From positions 1-34,828 of the forward strand of contig JBKHKF010000001.1 of the NCBI GenBank assembly GCA_046537745.1: a DNA stretch of 34,828 nt. Reading direction: 5' to 3'. The stretch is from Anaerolineales bacterium (GTDB taxonomy: Bacteria > Chloroflexota > Anaerolineae > Anaerolineales > E44-bin32). The position numbers and the translations under genes were made by a program. The first letter of the stretch is position 1; every line of letters begins with the position of its first letter. This document shows, one piece after another, positions 19,191 to 34,321 of this stretch. A model generated the notes under the pieces. That model was given only the letters and a program-made list of their open reading frames with translations. It was not told the origin of the DNA and did no database searches.

Positions 19191-21257
19191 TTAAAACTCC
19201 AGAAGGTTCTGGATGGCCCGATGAATGTCCTGTGAGGTGGGGATTACCTGATCCAATAGACTGGCGCTGTACGGCACCAGGCTTTCAGGCGCTGTCAACC
19301 GGCGAAGAGGGGCATCCAGCCACAGGAAAGCTTCTTCGGCCAGGGTTGCTTGAATCTCGGCGCCAAGGCCAGCGGTTCCGATGTCCTCATGCACCACCAG
19401 GCAGCGTCCGGTTTTCCGCACCGATTCAAGGACAGCCGCTTTGTCCCACGGTTGAACGGTTCGCAGATCCAGCAGATCGATCATGCCGGCAAACGCTTCG
19501 GCTGCTGCCGCAGCTCGCGGCACCATGGCGCCCCACGTGACCACTGTCAGCCGGTCGCCGGACATAAGTTGGGCGGCACGGCCAAAGGGCACCTTATAAT
19601 CGGAGCCCGGATCGGGGCGACGCCCCTCGCTGGAATCCAGCAGGGCCCGGTGCTCGAAAAAGACGGTGGGATCCTGGCCACGCAGCGCCGTCCGCAGCAG
19701 GCCGGCCGCGTCGGCCGCGTTGCTGGGAAAGGCCACCCGCCATCCCAGCGAATGTACAAAACTCACTTCATCCGTGACCGAGTGCCAGGGGTCGCCGATC
19801 TTCTTGCTGAACCCCACCGGCATCCGCACCACCACGGGCGCACCAAAGGTTCCGGCCGTTCGCCATCGGATGGTGCCCAGGTCATGGAGCTGCTCATAGG
19901 CCGGGTCGGCGTACTTGCGAAACTGGATTTCCGGGATGGGGAGCAAGCCCGCCATCGCCAAGCCGATGGAGCGGCCGATGATCCCCTCCTCCGACAAGGA
20001 TGTGTCGAAAACTCTGGCCTCACCGAACCTGGCTTGCAGATCGCGCGTCGCGCCGTGGACGCCGCCTTTGACACCCACATCCTCGCCAAAAATCAGCGCC
20101 CTTGGATTGGCAGCCAACTCCTGCTCAAGCACATCCCTGATCGCGTCGATCAAGTTGATCCTCGGCCCGTTCCGTTCGGCTTCACTATCAAGATTTGGCT
20201 CGGGCAACCCCAGCTCCGGCGCCATCCCGCCTACCTGCTGCAATGCTTCATCGAAAAAGACAAACCGACGCACATCCGCCCGGGGCTGAGGCCGTCGCCG
20301 CGCCGCTTCCAGTGCCTCTTGAAGCTCCTCCCGTGCCTTCGTTCGAAGCCGTTCGATCTCATCCTCGCCAACAAGCTCTGTGAGGCCAATGAGCGGATCG
20401 CGGCTGGACTCCTGCCTGCGTTCTTCGTCGCTCTTATACGCCTGGTTGTCGATGTAGGTGTGACCACTCAAGCGAGGCACATCGAGCCGCAGCAGTATCG
20501 GCCCAGCGCCCTGCCGCAGTTCCTGGACGGCCTGGCGGATCAGCGCCCGGCAGGCCAGTGGATCTGTTCCCGAGCCAGCCATCACATTGAGCCCTTGGAA
20601 GGCGCTCAAATTGCTGGCGATATCTCCACCGGGCGTTTGCAGCTGGGATGACACAGAGATTCCATAGCTGTTGTCTTCAATAAAGAAGAGCATGGGGAGC
20701 TGAAGAGTAGTGGCGATGGTCAACGCCGACCAAAAACCGTTGGCTGCCACCGAGCCATCCCCGCCCAGGACTGCGGCCAGCGCTCCCTGCCATTCGGCCT
20801 CTTCCAGCTCTTGCAATCGATATTGAATAGCCTGCGCCCAGCCGGCTACAGGTGTGTACTGCGCGCCAACATCGCCAGAGGCCGGCAGCACCGTCGGGCC
20901 CTCCCGGGGCGGCAGGGAAAAAACCACACCGACGTCTCTACCGTCGGAGGGCCCGCCCGCCCGGCCCATCCCCGCAGCCAGCGCTTCTTCAAGAGTCAGT
21001 CCCACACTCAACATGAAAGGTCGCGAGCGATAATAAACGCCGACAGCATCATGATCATGGGTCAGCTCGCGCGCCAGCAGCACCTGCGCCAGTTCGTGGC
21101 CCTTCGCCGAGAATTGATAGGGGACCTCGCCCTGGGGCGCCAGTTCCCGTTCCTCAAGCTCGTCGAGCTCACGCGAGCGGAGCACAAGTCGGGCGACCTG
21201 CCTCCATTCTTCTTGAGCTGCCGCTGTGGACTGCGTGACGCGGGTTTCATCCATCAT
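19191..21257 (-). CDS. Thiamine-diphosphate-dependent 2-oxoacid dehydrogenase E1 component, fused alpha/beta subunits
   Basis: The N-terminal half has the TPP motif GDGSVAANGFWSALTIA...FFIEDNSYGIS. The C-terminal half is E1-beta/transketolase-like (IFGEDVGVKGGVHGAT, FDTSLSEEGIIG). Confidence 0.85.
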   Translation of the reverse strand: MMDETRVTQSTAAAQEEWRQVARLVLRSRELDELEERELAPQGEVPYQFSAKGHELAQVLLARELTHDHDAVGVYYRSRPFMLSVGLTLEEALAAGMGRAGGPSDGRDVGVVFSLPPREGPTVLPASGDVGAQYTPVAGWAQAIQYRLQELEEAEWQGALAAVLGGDGSVAANGFWSALTIATTLQLPMLFFIEDNSYGISVSSQLQTPGGDIASNLSAFQGLNVMAGSGTDPLACRALIRQAVQELRQGAGPILLRLDVPRLSGHTYIDNQAYKSDEERRQESSRDPLIGLTELVGEDEIERLRTKAREELQEALEAARRRPQPRADVRRFVFFDEALQQVGGMAPELGLPEPNLDSEAERNGPRINLIDAIRDVLEQELAANPRALIFGEDVGVKGGVHGATRDLQARFGEARVFDTSLSEEGIIGRSIGLAMAGLLPIPEIQFRKYADPAYEQLHDLGTIRWRTAGTFGAPVVVRMPVGFSKKIGDPWHSVTDEVSFVHSLGWRVAFPSNAADAAGLLRTALRGQDPTVFFEHRALLDSSEGRRPDPGSDYKVPFGRAAQLMSGDRLTVVTWGAMVPRAAAAAEAFAGMIDLLDLRTVQPWDKAAVLESVRKTGRCLVVHEDIGTAGLGAEIQATLAEEAFLWLDAPLRRLTAPESLVPYSASLLDQVIPTSQDIHRAIQNLLEF

Positions 21258-21352: not shown

Positions 21353-21529
21353 CTAATCCAAATCTTCCTGCTCTACTACCTCTTCCAGTACGTGTTTATC
21401 GCGTTTTAACTGCCTCGCCCTGACGATCAAGCTGCCGACATAGCCGCCAATAAAAACCAGAATGACAGCATATCCCATGAGCATGAAATCCAGTGTGTCC
21501 GCGGGACCATTTTGAAAAAGCATCTGCAT
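21353..21529 (-). CDS. ccmD: CcmD-like small haem-exporter subunit (58 aa, absent from the ORF track)
   Basis: My translation: MQMLFQNGPADTLDFMLMGYAVILVFIGGYVGSLIVRARQLKRDKHVLEEVVEQEDLD. It has one TM helix and a basic then acidic tail. AGGGAGAG RBS directly upstream. It sits immediately after ccmC, where ccmD normally lies. Confidence 0.6.
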   Translation of the reverse strand: MQMLFQNGPADTLDFMLMGYAVILVFIGGYVGSLIVRARQLKRDKHVLEEVVEQEDLD

Positions 21530-21550: not shown

Positions 21551-22252
21551 TCAGGCTGACAACACTTTCATTTTGAGCTGCTCGACGCGATCCCCCAGAT
21601 CCTCGAGCCTGAACCGGTGCCAAAGCAGCGTCGCATAAACGAAGGTGAAGGTGATTAAGCTGAAGAAGAAAGTCTGAAGCATCTTGGGCGTCATATCGAA
21701 GGTCCCCTCCGCTGTTGGATCGCCCGACCCGATCACCACCGGATGGATGGTTCGAAGAAGGCGGACCGACAGGAAGGTGATGGGAACACTGATAAAACCA
21801 ACGATCCCGTATACCGAGCCAAAGGTGGCCCGTCGTTCCGGGTCCTCAATGCCCTGGCGCAGCAGCAGGTAAGCCAGGTAGATCAACTCCATCACCGTGG
21901 CCGTCACCAGCCTCGGGTCCCAGGTCCACCAGGTGTTCCAGATGGGTCGAGCCCAGATGGAACCCGTCGCGATATTGATAAAGGCGAAGATCACGCCAAT
22001 TTCCACCGAGGCTACCGCCACCTGATCCCAGCGCCGTTCCCGACGCACCAGATAGATTACTCCGGCGATCGCCGTGACCAGGAATGCAAGGGCGCCCACC
22101 CAGCCTGCGGCCACGTGAAAATAGAAGACCCGCTGCACTTCGCCCATGACCGCTTCTCGCGGCGCATAAAAGAAAACCATGGCGAGCGCAGCCGCAAAGA
22201 TAAGTGAAGTGACGCCCGTCAATACCTTCAAGCCCGTTGGTGTCTCCTTCAT
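21551..22252 (-). CDS. ccmC: Haem exporter / haem-handling protein CcmC
   Basis: Trp-rich WWD-type motif NTWWTWDPRLV, multiple TM helices and conserved His context (FYFHVAAGW). Start placed at MKETPTG (ATG 22252), which has a GGAGGA RBS. The tracked start at 22306 would overlap ccmB by 23 nt. Confidence 0.88.
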   Translation of the reverse strand: MKETPTGLKVLTGVTSLIFAAALAMVFFYAPREAVMGEVQRVFYFHVAAGWVGALAFLVTAIAGVIYLVRRERRWDQVAVASVEIGVIFAFINIATGSIWARPIWNTWWTWDPRLVTATVMELIYLAYLLLRQGIEDPERRATFGSVYGIVGFISVPITFLSVRLLRTIHPVVIGSGDPTAEGTFDMTPKMLQTFFFSLITFTFVYATLLWHRFRLEDLGDRVEQLKMKVLSA

Positions 22253-22283
22253 CCCTTCCTCCTCATGCCAGCCATCACTGGCG

Positions 22284-23015
22284 TCATTCTTGAACGACAT
22301 ACTCATACACCATCATGGCAACGGCGATAAAGATAACGTCGTAAGCGAGCATAATGTTAACCCAGGGTCGAATTTCAGCCATGGGAACCTGTTGAAGATA
22401 GCCGTTGCTGGTTTTGACCGCGGCGATTAGAACCGGAAGGAACACCGGAAACAGCAGTATGGGAAGCAGAACATCCCGGGTTCGCGTCTGCACTGCCATG
22501 GTGGACAACAGCGTCCCGACCGCGGAGTACCCGACCGTCCCCAAACCCACCGCCAAGAAAACCCCCGGTTTCAACAGATTCACGTTGTAAAGCAACCCAA
22601 AAAGCGGCATCACAATCAGCGCCACCAGCCAGATGAACAACAAATTGGCCAGCGCTTTGCCAAAGTATATTGCGCTGCGGTCCACCGGCGTCAACAGAAG
22701 CCCCTGCATGCAATCCCGCTCCTGCTCCTGACCCATGGATCGGTTCAGGCCCAGAGTGCCCGCAAATGTCAGTGTGACCCAGAGCACACCGGAGGTGATT
22801 TCCTGGCGCAGCTGGCTTTGCAGCTCCAGCGCAAAGTTGAAGACCAGAATCACCAGAAAGGAGAACACCAGCATCGCGCTCAGCAGCTCCCGGCTACGCA
22901 GCTCGGAGGCGAGCTCCTTGCGCACCAGCGCGCTAAGCGCCCTGAGATAAGAGGAGACGCCTGATTTCGGCGACGGCTGGGCCACCTTCGGCCCTTTTTT
23001 CACCCGATCAGCCAC
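22284..23015 (-). CDS. ccmB: Haem exporter permease CcmB
   Basis: Six-TM ABC-2-like permease between ccmA and ccmC. GTG start overlaps the ccmA stop (GTGGCTGA). Confidence 0.85.
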   Translation of the reverse strand: MADRVKKGPKVAQPSPKSGVSSYLRALSALVRKELASELRSRELLSAMLVFSFLVILVFNFALELQSQLRQEITSGVLWVTLTFAGTLGLNRSMGQEQERDCMQGLLLTPVDRSAIYFGKALANLLFIWLVALIVMPLFGLLYNVNLLKPGVFLAVGLGTVGYSAVGTLLSTMAVQTRTRDVLLPILLFPVFLPVLIAAVKTSNGYLQQVPMAEIRPWVNIMLAYDVIFIAVAMMVYEYVVQE

Positions 23016-23706
23016 GTGTGGCCTCCCGGTAGGCTTCAGCCAGCCCCTCGGTCGTCACGGTGCTGGTGCTGATGCTTGTCGCTACTCTGCCCCTCGATAA
23101 AATGTCCACCCGGTCGGCCAGCCGGTGAGCCCGGGCTAAATCATGCGATGTCATCACCACCGTCCGGCCCAGACTGGCAACCTGGGCCAGCAGATCATCC
23201 AGTATCAATGCGGCATCCTGATCAAGGCCGGTATGCGGCTCGTCCAGCAGCAGCAGCTCGGGTTGGTGCAAAATGGCGCGGGCGATAGCCAGCCGCTGCT
23301 GCATACCGCGGGAGAAGGCGCGCAACAGCTCCCGGCGTACCTTCCACAACCCGACCAGCTTCAGCGTCTCCTCCACTCGCTGGTCCACCTCAGCCAGGTC
23401 GTACATACGGCCGAAAAATTCGAGATTCTCCTGAGCAGTGAGGTCGCCATACAGCATCGGCTGATGGGCGACCACGCCAATGAGCCGGCGCACCTGAGAT
23501 TCGCCACCCGGGATCGGCACCGATGCGATCTGGATGATGCCCGCGGTGGGGCGCGCCAGCGAGGTCAAGATCCGAAGGAAGGTCGTCTTGCCCGCACCAT
23601 TGGGGCCAACAAGCGCGACAAATTCGCCGGCCGCCACGGAGAAATCCAGGCCGCGAAGCACAGGCTTCAGCCCGTACCTTTTAACCAGGCCGCGGACTTC
23701 AATCAT
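23008..23706 (-). CDS. ccmA: Haem exporter ATP-binding protein CcmA
   Basis: Walker A GPNGAGKTT, signature FSRGMQQR (the degenerate CcmA-type), Walker B LLLLDEPHTGLD. Positioned directly upstream of ccmB and ccmC. Confidence 0.88.
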   Translation of the reverse strand: MIEVRGLVKRYGLKPVLRGLDFSVAAGEFVALVGPNGAGKTTFLRILTSLARPTAGIIQIASVPIPGGESQVRRLIGVVAHQPMLYGDLTAQENLEFFGRMYDLAEVDQRVEETLKLVGLWKVRRELLRAFSRGMQQRLAIARAILHQPELLLLDEPHTGLDQDAALILDDLLAQVASLGRTVVMTSHDLARAHRLADRVDILSRGRVATSISTSTVTTEGLAEAYREATRG

Positions 23707-25522
23707 CTTGTCTCTGCATCAGGTCGATCAGCTGTTCCTTCAGCTCCTGGCGGCGCCGGCGGTAGGCGGCTTCCTCCACCTTGCCCGCTTCAAAGGCTTC
23801 GTCCAGGTCGGCGATGGCCTTCACAAGCCACTCTTGCCGCTCGCTCTCCGCCCGATCTTTGGTTGCGATGGATTCGCCTTCAGAGGTCGCCGCGGAAATC
23901 CAAGGACGATACCACCACAGGGTGGCTGCCAGTGCCAGCAGAAAGACCAGGCCCCCGATCACCCACTCCAAATCCAGGGAATCCGGCGCCAAGCGGGACC
24001 AGAAGGAGGGGCCCTGCAGTGTAATAACCAGCTGCTGGCCTGCCTCCCTGGACGGAAGGTCATACTGATGGAAATTCTCGCCGCCCGCCTGTCTTTGCCC
24101 CCGATCAACGACCTGCTCGGCCTCGACCTGGGGGCCACCGTCGGCAATCAATACCGTCACCGCGCTGACCGGCATGGTCAACGGACGACTCAACTCGGTC
24201 GTCCCTTCGAAGGGGACCTGGTAGCTGAAGACAATTTGAGCACCCTGGCCGCTGGGTCGCAGCGGCTCGGCCAGCTGAAAACCTCCTTCTACCGGGTTAT
24301 AACGTTCCGCCAGTAGGCTGTCCTCAAAGCGGAGATCCGTCGCTTCCTCAGGCAGCAGAATACGGACGCCATCCTCCTCCCCGGGCACCACGGTCCGCTG
24401 GCCGCTGTTGCTGATGACCCAGAGCTCAACGATCCTCAATCCCGTTTCAGACGGCTGATCAATCAGAATGTGCACTCGGCCCGCCTGCACCGCGCTGACA
24501 TCGGAGGTGGTTTCGTAGACCGTGATTGGCAGCTGAAGTTCTCCGTCGGATTCTTCAGCAAAATGAAGGACCTCTGAGCTGTAACGGACGCCCTGATATT
24601 GCGCGCTGATTACAAATAATCTGCCCGGGGCTCGTTCCAGATTGCGGAATGCGTAATCCCCATCCGCTCCGACCTCCTGCGTTTCAGAAAGCACCTCTTC
24701 CTGACCATCGAAGCCATGGATCGTGACCTCAAAACCGGCCTCCATGGGCTCGCCGCTGGTGCCATTTTGAGCCTGTCCCACGATGACGCCTGAGCCTTCT
24801 TCCTGTTCGACCGCCTCCGTTTCATCAATGGCGCCTTCACGGTCAAACGCGAGGCTCTGGACATAGGCTGTCACAGCCCAGATCTCCTCTTCAGCCAACT
24901 CTTCGCTGAAACCGGGCATCGTACCAACACCCACGCCGATCACAGCTGCCAGCTCACTCCGGGAGGATTGTGCATAGCTTTCCGAATCAATGATCGATGG
25001 TCCCTGCTGACCGCCTTCACCGCTCCGGCCGTGACATTCAGCGCAGTACTGCTGATAAAGGTTGCCACCCTCCGACAAGGCCGCTTCTTGGTGGCTCAGA
25101 CTCAAGGCGTAGGCGACAACATCCCAGCGCTCCTGGTCCGTCAAGCTGCTAAAGGGCGGCATGAAACGATCCATGCGTCCAACGGTCACTATCTGATACC
25201 ACTCGGCGGGAGCAGCCGACCGTGCGATTTCCGGATCGGCTAGCGCAGCCGGGGCCACCGACAGATCCGCCGCTTGTTCGCCGTCACCGAGCCCCTCCGG
25301 ACCGTGACAGGCGTCGCAACGCTGCTGATAGATGGCTTCTCCAGCGGCTGCCTCGGGCGAGGATGTGGGAGGTTCCACAGCGACCGGCGTGGTGGGTGTG
25401 GCCACCTGGGTTGCCAGGCTGACGGGGCTGCTGGAAGCGCCAGGCGGGGGCGTAATGTCGCCAGCTAAATTGCAGCCGGCTAACAGGGATCCAAGGAGAA
25501 CCAGCCATCCAATCCGCTTCAT
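23699..25522 (-). CDS. Dihaem c-type cytochrome lipoprotein with a beta-rich ectodomain, one C-terminal TM helix and a CcmI-motif cytoplasmic tail
   Basis: Start MKRIGWLVLLGSLLAGC (lipobox). CDACH and CAECH haem motifs with downstream MPPF/MPGF. About 300 aa of beta-rich sequence. TM helix WVIGGLVFLLALAATLWWY. Tail AIADLDEAFEAGKVEEAAYRRRRQEL. ATGA overlap with the upstream gene and an 8-nt overlap with ccmA. Confidence 0.8.
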   Translation of the reverse strand: MKRIGWLVLLGSLLAGCNLAGDITPPPGASSSPVSLATQVATPTTPVAVEPPTSSPEAAAGEAIYQQRCDACHGPEGLGDGEQAADLSVAPAALADPEIARSAAPAEWYQIVTVGRMDRFMPPFSSLTDQERWDVVAYALSLSHQEAALSEGGNLYQQYCAECHGRSGEGGQQGPSIIDSESYAQSSRSELAAVIGVGVGTMPGFSEELAEEEIWAVTAYVQSLAFDREGAIDETEAVEQEEGSGVIVGQAQNGTSGEPMEAGFEVTIHGFDGQEEVLSETQEVGADGDYAFRNLERAPGRLFVISAQYQGVRYSSEVLHFAEESDGELQLPITVYETTSDVSAVQAGRVHILIDQPSETGLRIVELWVISNSGQRTVVPGEEDGVRILLPEEATDLRFEDSLLAERYNPVEGGFQLAEPLRPSGQGAQIVFSYQVPFEGTTELSRPLTMPVSAVTVLIADGGPQVEAEQVVDRGQRQAGGENFHQYDLPSREAGQQLVITLQGPSFWSRLAPDSLDLEWVIGGLVFLLALAATLWWYRPWISAATSEGESIATKDRAESERQEWLVKAIADLDEAFEAGKVEEAAYRRRRQELKEQLIDLMQRQDD

Positions 25523-25992
25523 GGCAGGCTTGCCTCGGCCAGCGGCTCGCCGCACTGGGTGCAGAATTTATCTTCGGTCAGGGCTTCAGCCCCACAGGCT
25601 GGACAATATTTGGTGCTTTGATCAGGCGACGAACGCTGACGCAATTTCAGCACTTCGGCTTCGATGGCTGATTCGAGATCCTCCGCCGAACCCTCCGATG
25701 GCGCCTGGTGGCCCGCACCGAGCTCGTCAATCCTGCGGAGCAGCTCAGCCCCCTCCTTCACCAACTCCGCTCGCCGTCGCTGATAATCGTGCGCGTCGAT
25801 CTTGTTCATAGCGCGATCCATATCCAGCTCTGCCAGCGCATCAAGTACTCGATCGCGCTGAGCCAGCAGGGAGGAGAATTCAACATCCTCCTCTGTAACC
25901 ACCATGCCGCGCTGCTTCAGCAATGGGCGGGCGACGTACGCCGCCACCAGGGCCAGCAGGCCCAGGATAAATAGAATAGCTCCAATTTCCAT
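25519..25992 (-). CDS. Single-pass membrane protein with a CcmI-N-terminal-like motif and a C-terminal zinc ribbon
   Basis: N-terminal TM helix IGAILFILGLLALVAAYVA. Then ALAELDMDRAMNKIDAHDYQRRRAEL. Then CPAC-x10-CTQC. Confidence 0.7.
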   Translation of the reverse strand: MEIGAILFILGLLALVAAYVARPLLKQRGMVVTEEDVEFSSLLAQRDRVLDALAELDMDRAMNKIDAHDYQRRRAELVKEGAELLRRIDELGAGHQAPSEGSAEDLESAIEAEVLKLRQRSSPDQSTKYCPACGAEALTEDKFCTQCGEPLAEASLP

Positions 25993-26075: not shown

Positions 26076-26657
26076 TCAGCCCGACATGGCGGCATCGATC
26101 GCCGCCTGGATCTCCGCGAGCGAACTGTAGGGACCCTTCCTCACCGAATCAATACGGCCCGATGGATCAATGATATAGGTTTCCGGCACGCCGCGCATCC
26201 GGAATTTCTGAGAAATCCGGGTCCCCAGATCAGGGCCGCTCGGATATGAAATATCAAACTTGTTCATGTAAGCCATAGCTTCTGGCTCAGTATCCACATA
26301 ATTCACCCCCAGGAATACGACGCCCTGGTCTTGATACTGGCGGTAAGCCTGCTCAAGCTCCGCCGCCTCCTCCTCGCATGGAGCGCACCAGGAGGCCCAG
26401 AAATTCACCACGACTACCTGGCCGCGCAAAGCCTCCATTGAGATCTGCTCCCCTTCAAAGGTGGTAAGGGTGAAATCCGGCACTCGACTTCCCACACCGA
26501 CCGGTCCCTGTTGGGTTCTTATCAGGCCCAGGCCCAGCACCGCCAGCAGGATCACAACGGCCCCAAGCGCCAGGATTGCCCCCAAGGGCAACCCAAATAA
26601 TCGAAACCCCCTATTCGATGGCTCTTTATTCCTGTCTTCGACTATACCGTCATTCAT
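26076..26657 (-). CDS. ccmG: Thiol:disulfide oxidoreductase CcmG/ResA/TlpA family
   Basis: TM anchor LFGLPLGAILALGAVVILLAVLGLGL. Thioredoxin motif NFWASWCAPCEEE. GVPETYIIDPSG. Start at MNDGIVE (ATG 26657) overlaps the ccmH stop. Confidence 0.85.
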   Translation of the reverse strand: MNDGIVEDRNKEPSNRGFRLFGLPLGAILALGAVVILLAVLGLGLIRTQQGPVGVGSRVPDFTLTTFEGEQISMEALRGQVVVVNFWASWCAPCEEEAAELEQAYRQYQDQGVVFLGVNYVDTEPEAMAYMNKFDISYPSGPDLGTRISQKFRMRGVPETYIIDPSGRIDSVRKGPYSSLAEIQAAIDAAMSG

Positions 26658-27201
26658 CCTCAGCCTCGTCTTGAAGCGCCGGTTTATCTCCGGGTTCCAG
26701 GCCTTGTCGGGCCGCCAACTCTTGTTCCAGCTGGGCGATGTAGGGATCCTCCGTGGATTCGGGCACATCCTCCACTTCAAAGTCATCCCCGGATCGCTGC
26801 CAGCTGCGCACAGCTCGGAAGAGCACGCCGGCTCCCGCCAACAATGCCACCGGTGGCAGGATATAAACCAACCAGTTCAACCCACGGGCAGGCGGAGTCG
26901 CCAGCACACGGTCGCCGTACTGCTCAACGAAATAATTCTTGATTTCCTGCTCGGTCCAACCTTCCGCCAGCTTCTCCCGGATCAAGCTGCGCCACTGCAC
27001 ACAAGCCTCAGTCCCACACACATCCAGCGGGATATTCTCGCAGACCGGGCAATACAATTGCTCGGCGATATCGTTGACTTCGTTATCAGTAGGCCCACCA
27101 TCCTGAGCAGAAGCAGTTCCAAGCGGCACAGCCAGGATCAACAGCGCCATTGAAATCAACGCTAATTGAATGAGCCTCGCAGAGGTCCATTTTTTACTCA
27201 T
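26650..27201 (-). CDS. ccmH: Cytochrome c maturation protein CcmH/CycL/NrfF family
   Basis: Signal peptide, CPVC redox motif (LYCPVCENIPLDVC), FVEQYGDRVL, a TM helix WLVYILPPVALLAGAGVLF and an acidic C-terminal tail. Confidence 0.85.
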   Translation of the reverse strand: MSKKWTSARLIQLALISMALLILAVPLGTASAQDGGPTDNEVNDIAEQLYCPVCENIPLDVCGTEACVQWRSLIREKLAEGWTEQEIKNYFVEQYGDRVLATPPARGLNWLVYILPPVALLAGAGVLFRAVRSWQRSGDDFEVEDVPESTEDPYIAQLEQELAARQGLEPGDKPALQDEAEDE

Positions 27202-29255
27202 GCCTTAGCCCAGGCCTTTCTGTCCGCCTTTCGCCCCTGCATCACGCGCATAGGGTCAGGTTCCGGCCAAGCAGCCACCGCGGTCCCCAGGATGAAAATC
27301 AGACCACCAAACCACACCAGATTGACAAGCGGGTTCTGGTAGACCTTGAAGGTCGCACCTCCCTGTTCAATCGGCTGCCATCCGACCAGCAAAACGTAAA
27401 AATCGTCCTCGATCGAGGAACGGACGCCCGGAATGGTCATAGGCTGCTGGGTGCTGAAGTAAAAGTCCCGGCGAGGATAAAGTTCGCCTTGATATTCGCC
27501 ATCTTCGTACAAAGACACCACAGCTCTGGTGACCAGACGGTCATCCTCCGTGACAAACTCAGAAAGCGAATCGTAGGTCATAACGTATGAGCCAAGGGTA
27601 AGCTGCTCCCCCTGGCTAAGCGTCGCCTGCGTTTCGGATTGGAAGACCTCAATCCCGATGATCCCCATCGCCATGACGACTACGCCTAAATGAACGACAT
27701 AACCACCATAACGCTGTCGGTTCCTGGCCGCCAGGCGCCACAGCGCCTGGAGTACATTTTCCCCATGGCGGTGATGGCGAGCCAAGGCGCCCCGCCAAAA
27801 TTCATAAATGGTCACCAGGCTCGCAAGCGTGATCACCCAATAGCCCAGGATGGCGCCGGGCATGCGCATGCCGGCCAGCACCAAGGCAATTGGAGTCACC
27901 AGTGATAGCGCAGCCGGTTTCCAGAGTGATCGGCCCAGGTTTTTCCAGCTGGTGCGCCCATAGACGGACAGCGGCGCAACTCCCATGAGCAGCAGCAATC
28001 CAATCCAGAGCGGTGAGGTGGCGCGCTCGTAAAAAGGTGGACCTACGGTCACCTTCTGGCCCGCGATGAGTTCGGAGATAAGCGGAAACATTACGCCCCA
28101 GAAGCAAATGATCAGGATTCCAATGAAAAGCAGGTTGTTGAGCAGGAACAAGGCCTCCCGGGAGAACATAGAATGCAGTTCATTCTCACCGCCAAAGCCG
28201 TTCCACCGGCTGATCAAGAGAGCGGTCGAGGCCAGGAAGGTCACACTGATGAAGCCAAAGAACATCGGACCAATGGCCGACTGGGCAAAAGAATGCACGG
28301 AAGAGAGCACGCCGGATCGGGTCAGGAAGGTGCCGAAGATCACCAGCGCGTAGGTCAGGATCACCAGCACCATGTTCCAGCGCTTCAGCATCCCCCGCTT
28401 CTCCTGCACCATCACCGAGTGCAGCAGGGCCGTGCCTGTGAGCCACGGCATAAAGGCCGCAATCTCCACCGGATCCCAACCCCAATAGCCGCCCCATCCG
28501 AGCACGTCATAAGCCCAGCGGCCGCCAAGGATGAGCCCTAACGAAAGGAACAACCAGGCGACAAGCGTCCAGCGACGGGTCAATCGGATCCAGCGGTCAT
28601 CGGTGCGTCTGGTGATCAGCGCGGCGATGGCGAAGGCATAAGGGATCACGAAGGCGACGAAGCCGAGGTACAGCATCGGCGGGTGGATGATCATTCCTGG
28701 ATGGCGCAGCAGCGGGTTCAGCCCCTGTCCATCCGAAGGGATCAGCGGAGTCGCGCCAACCGGAGCGAACATGGCCGTGATCTGCTGGCCAGCCGCGCTG
28801 CGCCACAGGCGGGCAAAGGGATTTTCGAAAAAGACCACCAGGGAAAGGAAGAAGGCCAGCGTAACCATGGTCACCATGATCACCCAGGGCAGAAACTCCC
28901 GATCCCGATCCCAGCGGCGCAGGCTGGCGGCCGTGGCGAAACCGGCCATCAACCAGGACCAGAAGACCAACGACCCTTCCTGGCCGCCCCACAGGGCAGT
29001 AACCTTCAAATAGGTGGGCATCGCCTCGCTGGTGACGGAGGCGACATAGGAGATTTGATATTGGCCAGTGACCAGCAGAATAATAATGGCCAGACCGGAA
29101 AGGCTGAGCAGTGGAAAGGTGAGCACCATCGCCCGCCGGGCGCTCTCCACCAGCCAGGGCTTGTTCTGAACTCCCCCCAAGGCGGCGGCGGTTGCGCCAT
29201 ATATTGAGATGCCAAACGTGATGACTACCGTCAGAAAACCAATGTCAGCGATCAA
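27198..29255 (-). CDS. ccmF: Cytochrome c haem lyase subunit CcmF
   Basis: 685 aa with many TM helices. WWD motif GWGGYWGWDPVE and conserved His contexts. TTG start with AGGAG 8 nt upstream. Overlaps the ccmH start by 4 nt. Confidence 0.92.
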   Translation of the reverse strand: MIADIGFLTVVITFGISIYGATAAALGGVQNKPWLVESARRAMVLTFPLLSLSGLAIIILLVTGQYQISYVASVTSEAMPTYLKVTALWGGQEGSLVFWSWLMAGFATAASLRRWDRDREFLPWVIMVTMVTLAFFLSLVVFFENPFARLWRSAAGQQITAMFAPVGATPLIPSDGQGLNPLLRHPGMIIHPPMLYLGFVAFVIPYAFAIAALITRRTDDRWIRLTRRWTLVAWLFLSLGLILGGRWAYDVLGWGGYWGWDPVEIAAFMPWLTGTALLHSVMVQEKRGMLKRWNMVLVILTYALVIFGTFLTRSGVLSSVHSFAQSAIGPMFFGFISVTFLASTALLISRWNGFGGENELHSMFSREALFLLNNLLFIGILIICFWGVMFPLISELIAGQKVTVGPPFYERATSPLWIGLLLLMGVAPLSVYGRTSWKNLGRSLWKPAALSLVTPIALVLAGMRMPGAILGYWVITLASLVTIYEFWRGALARHHRHGENVLQALWRLAARNRQRYGGYVVHLGVVVMAMGIIGIEVFQSETQATLSQGEQLTLGSYVMTYDSLSEFVTEDDRLVTRAVVSLYEDGEYQGELYPRRDFYFSTQQPMTIPGVRSSIEDDFYVLLVGWQPIEQGGATFKVYQNPLVNLVWFGGLIFILGTAVAAWPEPDPMRVMQGRKADRKAWAKA

Positions 29256-29322: not shown

Positions 29323-29835
29323 TCAGCCGCTTTGAACTGGGACTTCCTCTTCATACCGGGTTGGGCATTTCAAGAGAAGCTCCTCTGCGTGAAAGACACC
29401 GTCCTGCATGCGGCCGGTGACAATCGCCTGGGCTTCGTGCTGAAGCAAATCCGGCATCGGCCCCTCATACAGAACCGGAATCCGGGATGCTTCGGGGTTG
29501 TTGACCGCCTGATGAAGCACTTCTGCCAGGCCGCCGGCCGCCTCGATCTCCGTCTGATCCGCCGGCACATTGACAATGGTAAAGTGAAGCGTCAGCGTCT
29601 CGGCTTCGTATTCAATGGAATCCCCAAGAACCGCACCGCTCACTCTGAGATCGCGATCGGCCACCTCCGCTTCCCTCTCCACCAGTTCATCAATCGTCAA
29701 ATAATATTGAGCAGATGCCTGTGTGGACGAGGCAATCAGATAAATCACTGCCGCCGCTATTAGAAGTCCGCCAATCAGGAATTTCCCACGCCCGGTGGAA
29801 CGGGCAGTTAACACTTCGAGCTTTTCCTTCTCCAT
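29323..29835 (-). CDS. ccmE: Haem chaperone CcmE, Cys-type variant (CxxxY in place of HxxxY)
   Basis: TM anchor FLIGGLLIAAAVIYLI and OB-fold-like core (LRVSGAV..., PVLYEGPMPDLLQHEAQAIVTG). The haem-attachment region reads AEELLLKCPTRYEEE, where canonical CcmE has LAKHDENY. Confidence 0.85.
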   Translation of the reverse strand: MEKEKLEVLTARSTGRGKFLIGGLLIAAAVIYLIASSTQASAQYYLTIDELVEREAEVADRDLRVSGAVLGDSIEYEAETLTLHFTIVNVPADQTEIEAAGGLAEVLHQAVNNPEASRIPVLYEGPMPDLLQHEAQAIVTGRMQDGVFHAEELLLKCPTRYEEEVPVQSG

Positions 29836-29967: not shown

Positions 29968-29997
29968 TTGCTATGTAATTGTTTTCTATCGTATACT
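29968..29997 (+). promoter_or_regulatory. Candidate promoter for the multihaem cytochrome operon
   Basis: TTGCTA (29968-29973), an 18-nt spacer, then TATACT (29992-29997), in the AT-richer divergent intergenic region. An imperfect inverted repeat GAATtGCG-N6-CGCATTC (30000-30020) follows immediately. Confidence 0.3.
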
Positions 29998-30060
29998 CGG
30001 AATTGCGAATTTGCGCATTCCCCAGTTCATAAAGTACGGTTTTATGGCAAACACTGGGAA

Positions 30061-31284
30061 ATGAATTCACCCACTCGGAAGATGAGCGGACGGTCCTGTC
30101 TGAAGAGAGGTAGTTTCTTGATTGGATTACAACCGACAAACAAAGGCTTTGATCCTTCGAAGGCCATCCTGCTTCTCGGCGCTTTGTTACTGACAGTCCT
30201 CTTCGTCTCGCCTCTGATCTGGAGTTCGGCTGAGGCCAGTGAAGGCCAGCAACCACCGGCCCAGGATGGTCCTGATAACGAAACTTGTTTCGCTTGCCAC
30301 GCCTCGCCGGATTTGCAGACCGAACTCTCTTCGGGAGAGATTCTGGACCTGACGGTTTTCCCAGGGGCATTTGACAACTCCGTACACGGCATGGCCGATC
30401 TGCAATGCATCCAGTGTCACACGGAGATTGAAGGTTATCCCCACCCGCCCATTCAGGCGGACACCCGCCGGGAATACACCATCAATCAATATCGAGTTTG
30501 TGCCGATTGTCATCAGGAAAAGTACGACGAAACTCTGGACAGCGTCCATTCACGAGCGCTGGCAGGTGGAAACTTCAATGCGGCTGTTTGCACCGACTGC
30601 CATGGGGCGCACGATGTGCGACCCCCGGGCGAACCGCGTTCGCAGATCGCGCAAACCTGCCGCCAGTGCCACACCACCATTTACGATCAATATCGGGACA
30701 GCGTGCATGGTGAGGCTCTGATCGGCCAGGGCAACCCGGATGTTCCGGTTTGCACGGATTGTCACGGGGTCCACAGCATCGAAGGACCATCGGCCGATCA
30801 CGAGTTCCGACTGTTCTCACCTCAGCTTTGCGCCGAGTGCCACGCCGATGAAGAGCTGATGGCTAAATACGACATTTCCACGAACGTGTTCGATACCTAC
30901 GTGGCGGATTTCCATGGCACCACCGTCACCCTGTTCCAGCAGATCGCCCCAGGCCAAGAGACCAACAAGGCGTTATGCATCGACTGCCATGGTGTGCACG
31001 ACATCATTGGCGTCGATGACCCGGACAGCCCGATCATCAAGGAAAATTTGCTCAATACCTGCCAGAAGTGCCACCCGGATGCCACCACCAACTTCCCTTC
31101 GGCCTGGCTGGGGCATTACGAGCCAAGCCCGCAGAACGCACCGATCGTTTACTACGTTGATCTTTTCTACAAGATTTTCATCCCGGCTGTGTTAGGAGGC
31201 ATGGCGATCTTCGTCATAGGCGATGCAGGCCACCGGATCCTCCAGCGCCGCTCCAAATCGGAGGAGGAAAAGTCCGATGAGTGA
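30061..31284 (+). CDS. Nine-haem c-type cytochrome with a signal/anchor sequence and a C-terminal TM helix
   Basis: Nine CXXCH motifs: CFACH, CIQCH, CADCH, CTDCH, CRQCH, CTDCH, CAECH, CIDCH, CQKCH. Hydrophobic N-terminal segment AILLLGALLLTVLFVSPLIWSSAEA. C-terminal helix IFIPAVLGGMAIFVIG. The start is uncertain: ATG 30061, ATG 30082, or TTG 30118 with an AGAGAGG RBS. Confidence 0.85.
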   Translation: MNSPTRKMSGRSCLKRGSFLIGLQPTNKGFDPSKAILLLGALLLTVLFVSPLIWSSAEASEGQQPPAQDGPDNETCFACHASPDLQTELSSGEILDLTVFPGAFDNSVHGMADLQCIQCHTEIEGYPHPPIQADTRREYTINQYRVCADCHQEKYDETLDSVHSRALAGGNFNAAVCTDCHGAHDVRPPGEPRSQIAQTCRQCHTTIYDQYRDSVHGEALIGQGNPDVPVCTDCHGVHSIEGPSADHEFRLFSPQLCAECHADEELMAKYDISTNVFDTYVADFHGTTVTLFQQIAPGQETNKALCIDCHGVHDIIGVDDPDSPIIKENLLNTCQKCHPDATTNFPSAWLGHYEPSPQNAPIVYYVDLFYKIFIPAVLGGMAIFVIGDAGHRILQRRSKSEEEKSDE

Positions 31285-32443
31285 CGAACGACGCTATCAA
31301 CGTTTCTCCGTCGCCCAGCGGATAGAACATTGGGTGGCCATGGGCAGCTTCACCATTCTTGCGCTGACGGGGTTGGTCCAGAAGTTCGCGGAAGCCCAGA
31401 TCTCTGTAACGATCATCGATCTGCTGGGCGGCATTGAAGCGACCCGAATTATTCACCGCGGGGCGGCCATCATCTTGATGCTTGAGGTGGTCTACCACCT
31501 GGGCTCGGTCGGCTACAAATTCCTGGTGCAGCGCTCATCACTGCCGATGCTGCCCAGCCTAGAAGATATCCAAAACGCCTGGCAAACGCTTAAATATTAC
31601 TTCGGCGGCGCAAAGAACAAACCGCAGCAAGGCCGTTTCACCTTTGAGGAGAAAGCGGAGTACTGGGCTTTTGTCTGGGGAACCATCATCATGGCCATCA
31701 CGGGCTTTATGCTGTGGAATCCCATCGCCACTACCCGGTTTCTCCCTGGAGAGTTCATACCCGCGGCCAAGGCTGCCCATGGGAATGAAGCGCTGTTGGC
31801 AGTGCTGGCCATTATCCTTTGGCACTTCTACCACGTACACATCCGAACCTTCAATCGGAGCATGTTCACCGGCAAGATGTCGGAGCATGAAATGCTGGAT
31901 GAACACCCCAAGGAACTGGCCGATATCAAGGCCGGTCGCGCGCGCCGGGATCTCGACGAATCCGCCGTCCAGCGACGCCGCATGATATTCCTGCCAGTGT
32001 ACGGGGTGATTGCGCTTGCACTGGTGTTTGGCATCTACCAGTTCGCCACCTTCGAGGAAACAGCCATCGAAACAGTGCCAACGCAAGAGGGCGAAGTGGC
32101 TGTGTACGTACCCTTCACTCCCACCCCGCCACCGACGGAAGGGCCCACGGAGGCGCCCACGGAGGGTGCAGTTCCCACTACATGGGAGCAAGGTATCGGG
32201 GATTTATTCCAACAGCGATGCGCGGGCTGCCATACCGGCGACAGCGCCTCGGGTGGATTGGATGTCACTACCTATCAAAGCACGCTGGAGGGTGGAACTT
32301 CAGGCCCAGGAGTCGTCCCGGGTGACCTGGACGCCAGCCTGGCCATTCAACGACAAATCTCCGGTGGTCATCCGGGCGAATTCACGGACCTGGAAATCGG
32401 ATGGGTTATTGACTGGGTTGAGGCTGGCGCGCCCGAAAACTAA
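31277..32443 (+). CDS. FdnI/HydC-type dihaem cytochrome b (4 TM) fused through a fifth TM helix and a Pro/Thr linker to a monohaem cytochrome c domain (PSCyt1-like)
   Basis: YQRFSVAQRIEHW, IIHRGAAIILMLEVVYHL, EKAEYWAFVWGTIIMAITGFMLW and AAHGNEALLAVLAIILWHFYHVH give the His-bearing helices. A fifth helix IFLPVYGVIALALVFGIYQF follows, then linker TPTPPPTEGPTEAPTEG, then QQRCAGCHTGDSASGGLDVTTY...GGTSGPGVVPGDLDASL...WVEAGAPE. The start overlaps the upstream stop (ATGAGTGA). Confidence 0.85.
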   Translation: MSDERRYQRFSVAQRIEHWVAMGSFTILALTGLVQKFAEAQISVTIIDLLGGIEATRIIHRGAAIILMLEVVYHLGSVGYKFLVQRSSLPMLPSLEDIQNAWQTLKYYFGGAKNKPQQGRFTFEEKAEYWAFVWGTIIMAITGFMLWNPIATTRFLPGEFIPAAKAAHGNEALLAVLAIILWHFYHVHIRTFNRSMFTGKMSEHEMLDEHPKELADIKAGRARRDLDESAVQRRRMIFLPVYGVIALALVFGIYQFATFEETAIETVPTQEGEVAVYVPFTPTPPPTEGPTEAPTEGAVPTTWEQGIGDLFQQRCAGCHTGDSASGGLDVTTYQSTLEGGTSGPGVVPGDLDASLAIQRQISGGHPGEFTDLEIGWVIDWVEAGAPEN

Positions 32444-32854: not shown

Positions 32855-34321
32855 ATGAGTGAAATCACGAAGGTCGCATCCTGGATTCGGTCCAACCTGC
32901 GTGTGAAATTTGCGCTCGGCCTGGGATTGCCGCTCTTCTTCATCCTGACATCCCTGGCGGTCGGCAATTACCTGCGCGAAAGGAGGTTGGCCGAACAGCA
33001 GCTGGAGGACTCGGCCCAGCGGATCGGCGACTTTACCTTGGCCAGCCTGCGGCATGGAATGCTGCAAAATGAACCGGAACTCCTTCAGGAAGTGATGGAG
33101 GACCTGGTTGACTTACAAGATATCGAGCGCGTCAAGTTGGTGGACATGGGTGGCGAGACAGCCCTGGCAACCCAAAGCCAGCCGGACCTGGAGCCTGCCA
33201 GCGACATCGACTACACATGTACGCTTTGCCACCAGCATCCAGCAGCCGCCCGCCCGCGCTCGATGCGAATTGGGGAAAGTGATGGATTGATCCGCATCGC
33301 CTCCCCCATCCCAAACGACCCGGATTGCCATATCTGCCATGGACCTGAACCCTCCCATCTGGGCATGCTGCTGATCGATGTATCCTTCGCCGATCTGGAC
33401 GCGCGATTACACCAGGACCTGGGCAGCAATCTGGCGCTCTCCGGTGGAGGCGCTCTGCTGGCCATAACAGTAGCCTACCTCCTGAGCCATTTACTGGTGG
33501 TCCGGCGGGTGGAATCTTTCAGCGAACCGGTGGCCAAAATCACAAGCGGCGACCTGACAGCCCATGTCCCAGGCGAGGATCAATCCACCGACGAGCTCGG
33601 CGCGCTCGCCCGGGCATTCAACCAGATGGCCGATCATCTCAATCGCGAGAAAAGGGCTGCCGACGCCCGGAGTCAGGTTCGACAGCGGGCTATCATCGAG
33701 GAGCGCAACCGACTTGCCCGGGAGCTGCACGACGGCCTGTCCCAACTGCTGGGCTATTTAAACGCCAAGGCGATTGCAGCGCGCCTGAAAGTCCAATCCG
33801 GAGATGGGGAGGGGGCGGCCGATCTGCTGCGGCAGCTGGAGGCAGCCTCTAAGGAACTCTTTACCGATGTTCGCGCCGCTATACTGGCACTCAAATCAAG
33901 TGGAGGCGCCGGCTTGGTCTTTCCGGAAAATCTGCGGACCTACATTCAGCGCTTCGAGGAATTGAGCGGGCTTGAAGTGGATGTCGAATTCTCACTTCAG
34001 CCCCTGGCCCACCAGGTATCGGCCGAGACGGAATTACAACTCCTGCGAATCACGCAAGAAGCTCTGGCGAACATTTACAAGCACGCGGAAGTGGACCACG
34101 CCGTGGTATCGCTTACGGTGGTTGATCATACGCTGGTGCTTCTTATACAAGATGAAGGCATTGGTTTTGAACCCGGAGCATCCGGGACCAAAGGAGCCGA
34201 TGGGTATGGAATGTCCACCATGGGAGAAAGGGCTTCCGCCATCGGCGCTGATCTAAAGATAGAATCATCCCCAGGCGGCGGCACTCGAATCTTGGTCCGC
34301 ACACCGTTGGAGGAGAGGTAA
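32855..34321 (+). CDS. Sensor histidine kinase (HisKA_3/NarX-like) with two CXXCH motifs in the extracytoplasmic sensor loop
   Basis: TM1 FALGLGLPLFFILTSLAVGNYL. The loop contains CTLCH and CHICH. TM2 ALSGGGALLAITVAYLLSHLLVV. HAMP segment ...ELGALARAFNQMADHL. H-box ERNRLARELHDGLSQ. HATPase segments ITQEALANIYKHA, DEGIGF, GYGMSTMGERA. Confidence 0.88.
   Translation: MSEITKVASWIRSNLRVKFALGLGLPLFFILTSLAVGNYLRERRLAEQQLEDSAQRIGDFTLASLRHGMLQNEPELLQEVMEDLVDLQDIERVKLVDMGGETALATQSQPDLEPASDIDYTCTLCHQHPAAARPRSMRIGESDGLIRIASPIPNDPDCHICHGPEPSHLGMLLIDVSFADLDARLHQDLGSNLALSGGGALLAITVAYLLSHLLVVRRVESFSEPVAKITSGDLTAHVPGEDQSTDELGALARAFNQMADHLNREKRAADARSQVRQRAIIEERNRLARELHDGLSQLLGYLNAKAIAARLKVQSGDGEGAADLLRQLEAASKELFTDVRAAILALKSSGGAGLVFPENLRTYIQRFEELSGLEVDVEFSLQPLAHQVSAETELQLLRITQEALANIYKHAEVDHAVVSLTVVDHTLVLLIQDEGIGFEPGASGTKGADGYGMSTMGERASAIGADLKIESSPGGGTRILVRTPLEER

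Follow-up and report, generated by a model that had tools for sequence, protein, structure and literature searches.

Two membrane proteins fixed inside the cytochrome c maturation operon of Anaerolineae are candidate accessory Ccm subunits

Introduction

Nearly all that is known of System I cytochrome c maturation comes from work on proteobacteria, and to our knowledge the role of CcmI and the way in which apocytochromes are presented to CcmF and CcmH are still unclear in these organisms. The present study concerns an operon for this pathway from an Anaerolineales bacterium, carried by a stretch of 34,828 nucleotides (nt) of a metagenome-assembled genome (MAG; contig JBKHKF010000001.1, assembly GCA_046537745.1), the whole of which is called the window below. 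The ccm cluster is encoded on the minus strand and contains, between ccmG and ccmA, two genes for predicted membrane proteins of 157 and 607 amino acids (ORF157, the small subunit, and ORF607, the large subunit), a placement that was given in an earlier note on this DNA and was borne out by the gene calls. What are these two proteins, and do they perform the work of CcmI?

CcmI consists of two transmembrane (TM) helices joined by a cytoplasmic region, which is leucine-zipper-like in Rhodobacter, followed by a periplasmic tetratricopeptide repeat (TPR) domain that acts as an apocytochrome chaperone; the protein acts as part of a CcmFHI complex and, depending on the organism, is dispensable or variable (PMC3884852, PMC3601427). 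The earlier note, made from the sequence alone, had suggested that the two genes represent a rewired or split CcmI module. The analysis reported here indicates that both proteins are very probably tied in function to cytochrome c maturation, because of their synteny, their gene overlaps and the existence of haem-free orthologs. It is further proposed, tentatively and at slightly less than an even chance, that they are accessory Ccm subunits that pair through TM-hairpin modules, dock on CcmF/CcmH and supply the role of CcmI. Literature searches found no description of this gene pair.

Results

The genes of the two proteins and their features are the following, with the source of each assignment in brackets.

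25519..25992, minus strand: ORF157, small subunit gene, 157 amino acids (open reading frame call)
25906..25986, minus strand: TM helix of ORF157, residues 3-29 (family alignment, AlphaFold2)
25714..25893, minus strand: predicted cytoplasmic hairpin of ORF157, residues 34-61 and 67-93, motif LDALAELDMDRAMNKIDAHDYQRRRAEL (hhalign, AlphaFold2)
25633..25686, minus strand: conserved helix of ORF157, residues 103-120, with invariant E111 and R118 (alignment, AlphaFold2)
25549..25605, minus strand: C4 zinc ribbon of ORF157, CPAC-x10-CTQC(G), residues 130-148 (Pfam PF13240)
23699..25522, minus strand: ORF607, large subunit gene, 607 amino acids (open reading frame from ATG)
25472..25522, minus strand: signal peptide of ORF607 and lipobox LLAGC (Cys17), then conserved LAGDITPPP (sequence)
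25097..25351, minus strand: cytochrome c domain 1 of ORF607, residues 58-142 (Pfam PF00034, PF13442)
25304-25318, minus strand: haem motif CDACH of domain 1 (sequence)
24860..25081, minus strand: cytochrome c domain 2 of ORF607, residues 148-221 (Pfam)
25031-25045, minus strand: haem motif CAECH of domain 2, with Met202 near (sequence)
24518..24793, minus strand: beta-sandwich domain 1 of ORF607, residues 244-335 (AlphaFold2, strands with pLDDT > 90)
24014..24490, minus strand: beta-sandwich domain 2 of ORF607, residues 345-503 (AlphaFold2)
23903..23971, minus strand: C-terminal TM helix of ORF607, about residues 518-540 (alignment, AlphaFold2)
23708..23866, minus strand: predicted cytoplasmic hairpin of ORF607, residues 553-578 and 584-605, AIADLDEAFEAGKVEEAAYRRRRQEL (hhalign, AlphaFold2)

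In family alignments of 24 ORF157 homologs and 28 ORF607 homologs, the TM helix and the helical segment next to it were among the best conserved parts of both families. AlphaFold2 modelled this segment in both proteins as an antiparallel helical hairpin that follows the TM helix and turns at a conserved Gly or Asn, and the block-mean predicted local distance difference test (pLDDT) was above 90 over both hairpins. When the two family modules were compared with hhalign, an alignment of 86 columns was obtained (Prob 97.8, E 7.7e-13, score 67.3), whereas the scores of 20 column shuffles did not exceed 16.8 and that of the reversed control was 14.4; without the TM helix the comparison still gave E 6.9e-11. 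The residues L, D, G, Y, R and L occur at fixed spacing in both families, and the 11 identities over 26 aligned residues counted in the earlier note were correct on recount. Since the profile score lies far above the shuffle and reversal controls, the TM-hairpin modules of ORF157 and ORF607 are homologous. Moreover, the module profile matched exactly two genes, the small and the large one, in each related locus. A chance or compositional similarity of amphipathic helices, devoid of biological meaning, could be argued from the charged and helical nature of the segments, a composition prone to spurious matches, and from a TM-only match to CcmI that reaches E 6e-5 even when reversed. However, the control scores, the match of the motif alone, the identical spacing and the modelled hairpins leave this explanation a negligible probability, and the shuffle and reversal controls effectively refute it.

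The position of the pair was then compared across relatives. A scan of GTDB (one genome per species, with the ORF607 family as query) gave at least 549 candidate relatives, of which the best 80 were examined; together with two metagenome contigs (L001 and L002) they make up the 82 related loci considered here. All of these 80 carried the label Chloroflexota, and almost all of them that of Anaerolineae; among them were the cultured Bellilinea caldifistulae GOMI-1, Levilinea, a MAG of Anaerolinea thermophila and one MAG labelled Ca. Aquidulcis. The order ccmE-F-H-G-[small]-[large]-ccmA-B-C was found in 82/82 loci, as far as the contigs reach, including the two metagenome contigs, which are distant (43% and 31% identity). 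One locus (L053) had no detectable ccmH, and an apparent inversion in another (L066) was a sorting artefact. With start codons assigned by a heuristic, 41 of about 81 loci showed a 4-nt overlap between the small and the large gene, and 32 of about 77 an overlap of 8 or 4 nt between the large gene and ccmA. Both overlaps reported for the window by the earlier note were confirmed by direct reading of the sequence, namely the ATGA shared by ORF157 and ORF607 at 25519-25522 and the 8 nt shared by ORF607 and ccmA at 23699-23706. That note had described the pair as non-canonical and had set its conservation beside ccm genes as a test beforehand; the pair proved to be fixed inside the ccm operon at all 82 loci. 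Furthermore, a search of 5.8 billion proteins with the module profile returned only the same two families, many of the apparent small proteins being C-terminal fragments of large subunits on short contigs. No canonical CcmI surfaced in this search, probably since it relies on shared exact words.

The small subunit begins with its TM helix, which is followed by the invariant Pro23 and basic residues, and by the positive-inside rule it would adopt an N-out/C-in topology. Residues P23, D59, K64, L77, E111, R118 and four Cys were invariant in the small-family alignment, and all four ribbon Cys were invariant among 49 sequences. The zinc ribbon was recognized by PF13240 (Zn_Ribbon_1) with 30.2 bits against a cut-off of 25. 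The N-terminal TM helix, the helix quoted in the earlier note and the CPAC-x10-CTQC motif are all borne out by the sequence, the ribbon also by this Pfam match above threshold. The AlphaFold2 model of ORF157 had a pLDDT of 82.3; a Foldseek search with it gave only non-significant helical hairpins (E >= 0.12), and a sequence search of the PDB gave only generic zinc ribbons for the small protein, the closest relatives of the ribbon being ribosomal zinc-ribbon proteins in a weak and generic match. No curated family spans the small protein as a whole, which is labelled 'zinc ribbon domain-containing protein' by NCBI.

The large subunit was read from the ATG, although the longest open reading frame in its frame begins upstream at GTG 25555 (618-residue numbering). 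It is a predicted lipoprotein: C17, L19, A20, D22, P25 and P26 are conserved in the family, Cys17 is kept in at least 90% of sequences, and a simple lipobox pattern (a signal peptide ending in [LVI][ASTVI][GAS]C) matched 65 of 82 homologs. In cytochrome c domain 1, C69, C72, H73 and M121 are invariant, with Met121 the likely axial ligand, and in domain 2, C160, C163 and H164 are invariant and M202 occurs in at least 90% of sequences. Both haem domains pass the Pfam thresholds (PF13442, 104.3 bits; PF00034, 77.4 bits), so that at the sequence level ORF607 has the CxxCH motif, the distal Met and the Pfam match of a class-I c-type cytochrome. The AlphaFold2 model (mean pLDDT 88.9) comprises two cytochrome c domains (residues 58-231), a disordered linker, two beta domains, the TM helix and the hairpin, with beta structure totalling about 270 residues. 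For the beta part there is no matching sequence family in Pfam, NCBIfam or the PDB; beta domain 2 matched no Pfam or NCBIfam family, and beta domain 1 resembled CarboxypepD_reg weakly (E 0.011 in a haem-free ortholog). The hairpin tail, in which D574 and R591 are invariant, is among the best-conserved parts of the protein outside the haem motifs. Pfam and AlphaFold2 thus uphold the earlier description of ORF607 as a lipobox protein with CDACH and CAECH haem domains, a beta-rich ectodomain, one TM helix and a cytoplasmic tail.

In Foldseek searches, the haem part of ORF607 matched the dihaem subunits Kuenenia Kustc0457/8, QcrC and ActE. The beta and TM part matched ribophorin I/Ost1 (6s7o_E, 6ezn_A; E 2e-9 to 1e-7) and also Gram-positive pilins. 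For the beta part, identities were 9-13% overall, and the ribophorin I/Ost1 match, with identity of 9-11% and TM-scores of 0.2-0.28, most likely reflects an analogous architecture and not homology.

NCBI labels ORF607 a 'c-type cytochrome', and the protein could indeed be read as an ordinary membrane-tethered dihaem electron carrier that is a substrate of the Ccm machinery and is co-transcribed with it, the small protein being an unrelated passenger. The two standard class-I haem domains, with CxxCH and Met and with scores above the Pfam thresholds, agree with this explanation, as do the structural matches to respiratory dihaem subunits and the presence just upstream of a nine-haem cytochrome and a cytochrome b/c fusion, which makes the region rich in respiratory cytochromes. 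However, the invariant gene order with its frequent overlaps, the strong conservation of the hairpin tail and the homologous module of the small protein all run counter to it, as do the variants found among relatives. Two CxxCH motifs were present in 80/82 large proteins and one in 2/82; the monohaem subunits (L001 10525-12030 and L016) lack cytochrome c domain 2 and are encoded in otherwise identical operons. An exhaustive profile search also recovered, among the matches listed, four complete relatives of the large subunit that are haem-free (P0239, P0274, P0327 and P0345). All four still have the two beta domains together with the TM helix and a hairpin, the latter present in two copies in P0239, and P0274, P0327 and P0345 retain the lipobox and LAGD(I/V)TPPP. 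Three of them (P0239, P0327 and P0345) could be placed on contigs; each of these begins with a lipobox or another N-terminal signal, and they occupy the same operon slot:

L092, haem-free P0327: ccmH-ccmG-[zinc-ribbon protein]-[P0327]-ccmA-B-C-(55 amino acids)
L093, haem-free P0345: ccmH-ccmG-[zinc-ribbon protein]-[P0345]-(133-residue gene cut at the contig end)
L090, haem-free P0239: ccmH-[124-residue TM-hairpin protein without zinc ribbon]-[P0239]-ccmA-B-C-(53 amino acids)

Because orthologs lose the haems yet keep the slot, the comparison argues strongly against the large protein being simply a substrate cytochrome, and the reading as a co-transcribed electron carrier with an unrelated neighbour is quite unlikely.

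The zinc ribbon is variable as well. It was present in 79/81 small proteins of the related loci, the two exceptions looking frameshifted, and it is missing from the small ortholog of L090, which retains the helix equivalent to residues 103-120. In L090 and L091 the small-subunit homolog directly follows ccmH, the slot that ccmI holds in the Pseudomonas and Serratia records; the L091 copy has the zinc ribbon, lies on a short contig and falls in a 90% cluster that also holds a sequence labelled Armatimonadota by NCBI. In the metagenome contig L002 the small subunit appears frameshifted before its zinc ribbon, and a 314-residue protein with a weak Zn_Ribbon_1 match is encoded immediately upstream of ccmE (4402-5346). 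The conserved core is therefore a small protein with TM helix, hairpin and helix, and a large protein with a lipobox or anchor, two beta-sandwich domains and a TM-hairpin module. Since orthologs without them occupy the same slot, the dihaem domains and the zinc ribbon are, as far as sequences tell, lineage-specific additions. In this respect the earlier note, which had named both in its heading, needs revision: haem-free, monohaem and, in one case, ribbon-free orthologs show them to be dispensable, and the dihaem domains are ruled out as a definition of the family.

The haem domains might alternatively serve the machinery itself. In CcmE of the window a Cys replaces the haem-binding His (motif CPTRY), and the motif CP[TS][KR]Y was found in 66/66 related loci that include ccmE; the CPxxY motif in CcmE places the operon in System I*. 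This variant with Cys-type CcmE has been noted for Chloroflexi in a review, and its chemistry differs from that of the His type (PMC3601427). A dihaem subunit could be imagined to feed electrons to the haem iron on Cys-type CcmE/CcmF, or to the thiols of CcmG/CcmH, its haems substituting for a DsbD/CcdA-type or quinol-based route. Neither ccdA nor dsbD was found in the window by Pfam scans of large open reading frames, all related operons have the Cys-type CcmE, and nearly all Anaerolineae would hold two c-type haems tethered at the membrane surface by CcmG/H. Against this, ccdA/dsbD may lie in another part of the genome, the machine would require its own product in order to function, and haem-free orthologs in otherwise identical operons imply that haems are not needed for the conserved role. 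The existence of these orthologs weakens the electron-supply and the co-transcribed-cytochrome explanations alike, and a role in electron supply is decidedly improbable.

Resemblance to CcmI was examined at the profile level. TIGR03142, the N-terminal domain of CcmI, matched residues 7-97 of ORF157 (E 8e-5, 22.9 bits) and the tail of ORF607 (residues 536-614 in the 618-residue numbering; E 5e-4, 20.4 bits), the matches ending at profile positions 86 and 78 of 118. Among 30 isolated modules it was by far the most frequent NCBIfam match (14/30 at E <= 0.01, best 1.2e-5), and on more distant small-subunit homologs its matches were patchy (2/8). Five proteobacterial CcmI N-termini, from plasmid or chromid records of Pseudomonas, Rhizobium (two), Serratia and Aeromonas, were also used as a reference. 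With hhalign, the ORF157 module matched them over 65 columns covering TM1 and the loop (Prob 91.9, E 7e-7), and the ORF607 module over 45 columns covering the motif (Prob 91.6, E 8e-7); the ORF157 module scored 40.4, and column shuffles at most 18.2. As CcmI is, the pair is encoded with ccmF and ccmH, in 82/82 loci. No TPR or CcmI protein was found in the window by Pfam scans of large open reading frames and by phmmer with four proteobacterial CcmI sequences, nor was a TPR CcmI present within 10 kb on either side of the operon in the 82 loci, which agrees with the earlier statement that the operon has no TPR-bearing CcmI. E. coli CcmH was tried as a surrogate for CcmI and was rejected, its cytoplasmic loop having no such motif. 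We regard the membrane segment of CcmI as the closest named relative of the module within the ccm world.

Outside the ccm world, the hairpin has wider affinities. In alignments and models it is a helix-Gly-helix unit with a conserved Gly, and Pfam GvpG matched residues 47-79 of ORF157, the window proteins scoring 15-18 bits with this family, below its cut-off of 30.6. SHOCT is described as a pair of helices spanning about 30 residues that has a conserved Gly, is usually C-terminal and is of unknown function (PMC3581485). In our reading, the module is probably one of a broad class of SHOCT/GvpG-like hairpins; neither the GvpG nor the SHOCT Pfam family was matched by the five canonical CcmI N-termini. 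An exhaustive representative search with the module profile (E <= 1e-3) was saturated by the two families among the best 150 of 6439 matches listed. Other architectures were observed as well: P0233 and P0234 are GT2-type glycosyltransferases with eight tandem copies of the hairpin motif inserted, the cluster mates of P0233 being labelled Candidatus Bathyarchaeota by NCBI, and in P0254, P0263 and P0280 the motif occurs in two copies, together with a TM helix and an ectodomain of an unrelated kind.

The probable membership of the hairpin in an adaptor-like class that is widespread in many architectures (PMC3581485) suggests another explanation, in which the pair is a sensing or coupling device: the outward domains would report redox state or apocytochrome load, and the hairpins and zinc ribbon would relay the signal to a cytoplasmic partner such as the CcmA ATPase, whose gene is immediately downstream, the translation/secretion machinery or nucleic acid. 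The conservation of the predicted cytoplasmic zinc ribbon in most homologs, its nearest PDB relatives being ribosomal in that weak, generic match, and the location of the genes at the junction of the ccmEFHG and ccmABC(D) blocks, where the large gene overlaps ccmA, are in keeping with such a device. However, neither the zinc ribbon nor the haems are universal, which leaves a core without any evident cofactor for sensing; Pfam and NCBIfam revealed no domain for DNA binding or signalling; and a structural Ccm subunit would account at least equally well for the slot beside ccmH and the likeness to TIGR03142. Such a device, with any of these partners, is a possible but rather unlikely explanation.

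The remaining genes of the ccm cluster were assigned as follows, with Pfam and NCBIfam agreeing with each named Ccm gene.

29323..29835, minus strand: ccmE, Cys-type variant (Pfam CcmE)
about 29353-29367, minus strand: CPTRY motif of ccmE (sequence)
27198..29255, minus strand: ccmF (NCBIfam TIGR00353, E 2.7e-123)
26650..27201, minus strand: ccmH, CPVC motif (Pfam CcmH)
26076..26657, minus strand: ccmG/ResA-like thioredoxin (redoxin), CAPC motif (Pfam, NCBIfam)
23008..23706, minus strand: ccmA, ABC ATPase (Pfam)
22284..23015, minus strand: ccmB (Pfam)
21551..22306, minus strand: ccmC (Pfam)
21353..21529, minus strand: single-TM open reading frame of 58 amino acids in the position of ccmD (position and size only)

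The likely start of ccmG is the ATG at 26657, which gives an 8-nt overlap with ccmH, and its homologs are 189-195 amino acids long. The 58-residue open reading frame after ccmC has no Pfam match, and frames of 53-61 amino acids directly follow ccmC in L001, L002, L090 and L092.

Several other genes of the window were recorded. Divergent from ccmE, on the plus strand, 29968-31284 encodes a multihaem cytochrome with nine CxxCH motifs and c7/c3/MtrC-like Pfam matches; it overlaps by 62 nt with 31223-32443 (plus strand), which encodes a fusion of a cytochrome b561-like membrane protein with a monohaem cytochrome c domain at the C-terminus. Downstream of these cytochrome genes, 32855-34321 (plus strand) encodes a HisKA_3/HAMP sensor histidine kinase with CTLCH (residue 122) and CHICH (residue 158). 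Both motifs fall in the sensor region at the N-terminus, which is presumably extracytoplasmic, and the kinase may bind haem c. The ccm cluster is immediately followed, on the minus strand, by a 688-residue open reading frame with E1_dh, Transket_pyr and Transketolase_C matches (19191-21257), which resembles an E1 component of a 2-oxoacid dehydrogenase with its alpha and beta parts fused. An 807-residue open reading frame at 9646-12069 (minus strand) matched no Pfam family at E <= 1e-5, and the selenocysteine synthase gene selA at 4062-5459 (plus strand) implies selenoprotein use.

Discussion

The favoured reading is that of accessory Ccm subunits standing in for CcmI. Both proteins are predicted to be bitopic, each with one N-out/C-in TM helix followed by the homologous cytoplasmic helix-Gly-helix hairpin of about 45 residues. 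Beyond its hairpin, the small subunit carries the conserved helix and usually the C4 zinc ribbon, both predicted to lie in the cytoplasm. The large subunit is predicted to be anchored by a lipid at its N-terminus, with its pair of beta-sandwich domains exposed outside the membrane; in most Anaerolineae two class-I cytochrome c domains come before them, and in some relatives one or none. The two subunits may pair through their related TM-hairpin modules, and the pair may dock on the CcmF/CcmH haem-ligation complex. It would thereby take over the job of proteobacterial CcmI, the TM-hairpin corresponding to the membrane and cytoplasmic segment of that protein, while the beta domains, in place of TPR repeats, would hold or present apocytochromes as a chaperone does.

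A number of observations weigh against this reading. The cut-off of TIGR03142 is 29.3 bits, and none of the 30 modules tested reached it. When the TM helix was left out, the hhalign Prob of the motif against CcmI fell to 67-72, and the reversed TM helix alone gave the E-value of 6e-5 mentioned above. A second TM helix is absent from both proteins in sequence and AlphaFold2 models, and neither has a TPR domain according to Pfam, the ectodomain consisting of cytochrome c and beta-sandwich domains. GvpG (PF05120) matched 24 of the 30 modules (best E 1.5e-6), more often than TIGR03142, and SHOCT (PF09851) matched 4 of 30 (best 3.5e-4). The module profile found 6439 representative proteins at E <= 1e-3, thousands of them unrelated to ccm, and the resemblance to CcmI may be generic because the hairpin occurs in so many non-ccm proteins. 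Moreover, the study that described SHOCT saw no oligomerisation in its own test (PMC3581485), which leaves hairpin-mediated pairing without precedent. Finally, a canonical CcmI may be encoded elsewhere in the genome. Judged by these sequence measures, the proteins are not members of the CcmI family in the strict sense, and the breadth of the profile matches, together with those to GvpG and SHOCT, led us to reject the hairpin as a CcmI-specific element. The likeness to CcmI put forward in the earlier note thus holds as a profile-level match to TM1 and the cytoplasmic loop, and fails in that it lies below the TIGR03142 cut-off and is not specific to CcmI. Taken by its sequence, the pair appears to be a different accessory module of System I/I*.

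A more elaborate version of the accessory-subunit reading may be considered, in which Anaerolineae and some other lineages have CcmI replaced by a heterodimer of two single-pass proteins joined via the SHOCT-like hairpins, the beta domains of the large subunit handle apocytochromes and, in most species, its two haems form a redox wire to the Cys-type CcmE/CcmF site. This version is unlikely. If it were true, the maturation machine would itself contain a c-type cytochrome, and the SHOCT-like hairpin would gain a defined role as an assembly module of a membrane complex.

The findings are of interest in several respects. Anaerolineae, a large and environmentally abundant class, possess a strictly conserved and undescribed membrane-protein pair at the heart of this operon, where CcmI function would be expected. 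The operon offers a natural experiment in which beta-sandwich and optional haem domains may take the place of TPR repeats, a CcmI-like module occurs twice, once on each protein, and a Cys-type CcmE occurs together with CcmH and CcmG. In addition, it would be one of few genomic contexts that suggest a concrete role for a SHOCT/GvpG-like hairpin. The annotation of the large protein as a 'c-type cytochrome' also has a practical consequence, as metabolic reconstructions of Anaerolineae may count it as a respiratory cytochrome.

Among known systems, CcmI/CycH offers the nearest comparison. In both, a predicted N-out TM helix is followed by Pro and basic residues and then by a probably similar cytoplasmic amphipathic motif, as a comparison by eye of ELDREVETNQLGRNEYEYARAEVARRL, the loop in Rhizobium, with ELDMDRAMNKIDAHDYQRRRAELVKEG of the window suggests, and the window pair, too, is encoded beside ccmF and ccmH. 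However, the module occurs here twice, on two separate proteins; the large protein has a permuted order, from ectodomain to TM helix to hairpin; and beta-sandwich and haem c domains make up the outward part, a zinc ribbon being a further addition.

SHOCT, the SHOCT-like DUF1707 and GvpG are short units of two amphipathic helices of the helix-Gly-helix type, often C-terminal, often just past a TM helix, and single or repeated (PMC3581485), a form that the hairpins of the window proteins appear to share. The matches to SHOCT and GvpG are weak, and the hairpin helices of the window proteins are longer, at about 25 residues each.

The C-terminal half of E. coli CcmH and NrfG are TPR-containing, apocytochrome-binding relatives of CcmI, accessory in the System I and Nrf haem lyases, and they are dispensable or variable between lineages, as are the decorations of the window proteins (PMC3601427). 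No sequence or fold similarity between them and the window proteins was found; the short cytoplasmic loop of E. coli CcmH contains no hairpin motif, and the periplasmic part of this protein is an all-alpha TPR domain.

CcoP of the cbb3 oxidase, QcrC of the actinobacterial bcc complex and ActE of Alternative Complex III have two tandem class-I domains with CxxCH and Met, and proteins of this type match the haem part of ORF607 in sequence and fold. They differ in being subunits of respiratory complexes and encoded with those complexes, and in having neither a beta ectodomain nor a hairpin tail, whereas the haem domains of the window family are optional.

Ribophorin I/Ost1 resembles the large subunit in overall layout, with a tandem pair of beta sandwiches across the membrane from the cytosol, a single TM helix and a helical portion within the cytosol. 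It is a non-catalytic subunit of the oligosaccharyltransferase, a machine that modifies unfolded secreted polypeptides, as the large subunit would be of the Ccm machine, but it is eukaryotic and belongs to a different pathway. Finally, compared with the System I* of Desulfovibrio and archaea, the Anaerolineales operon described here does have CcmH and CcmG.

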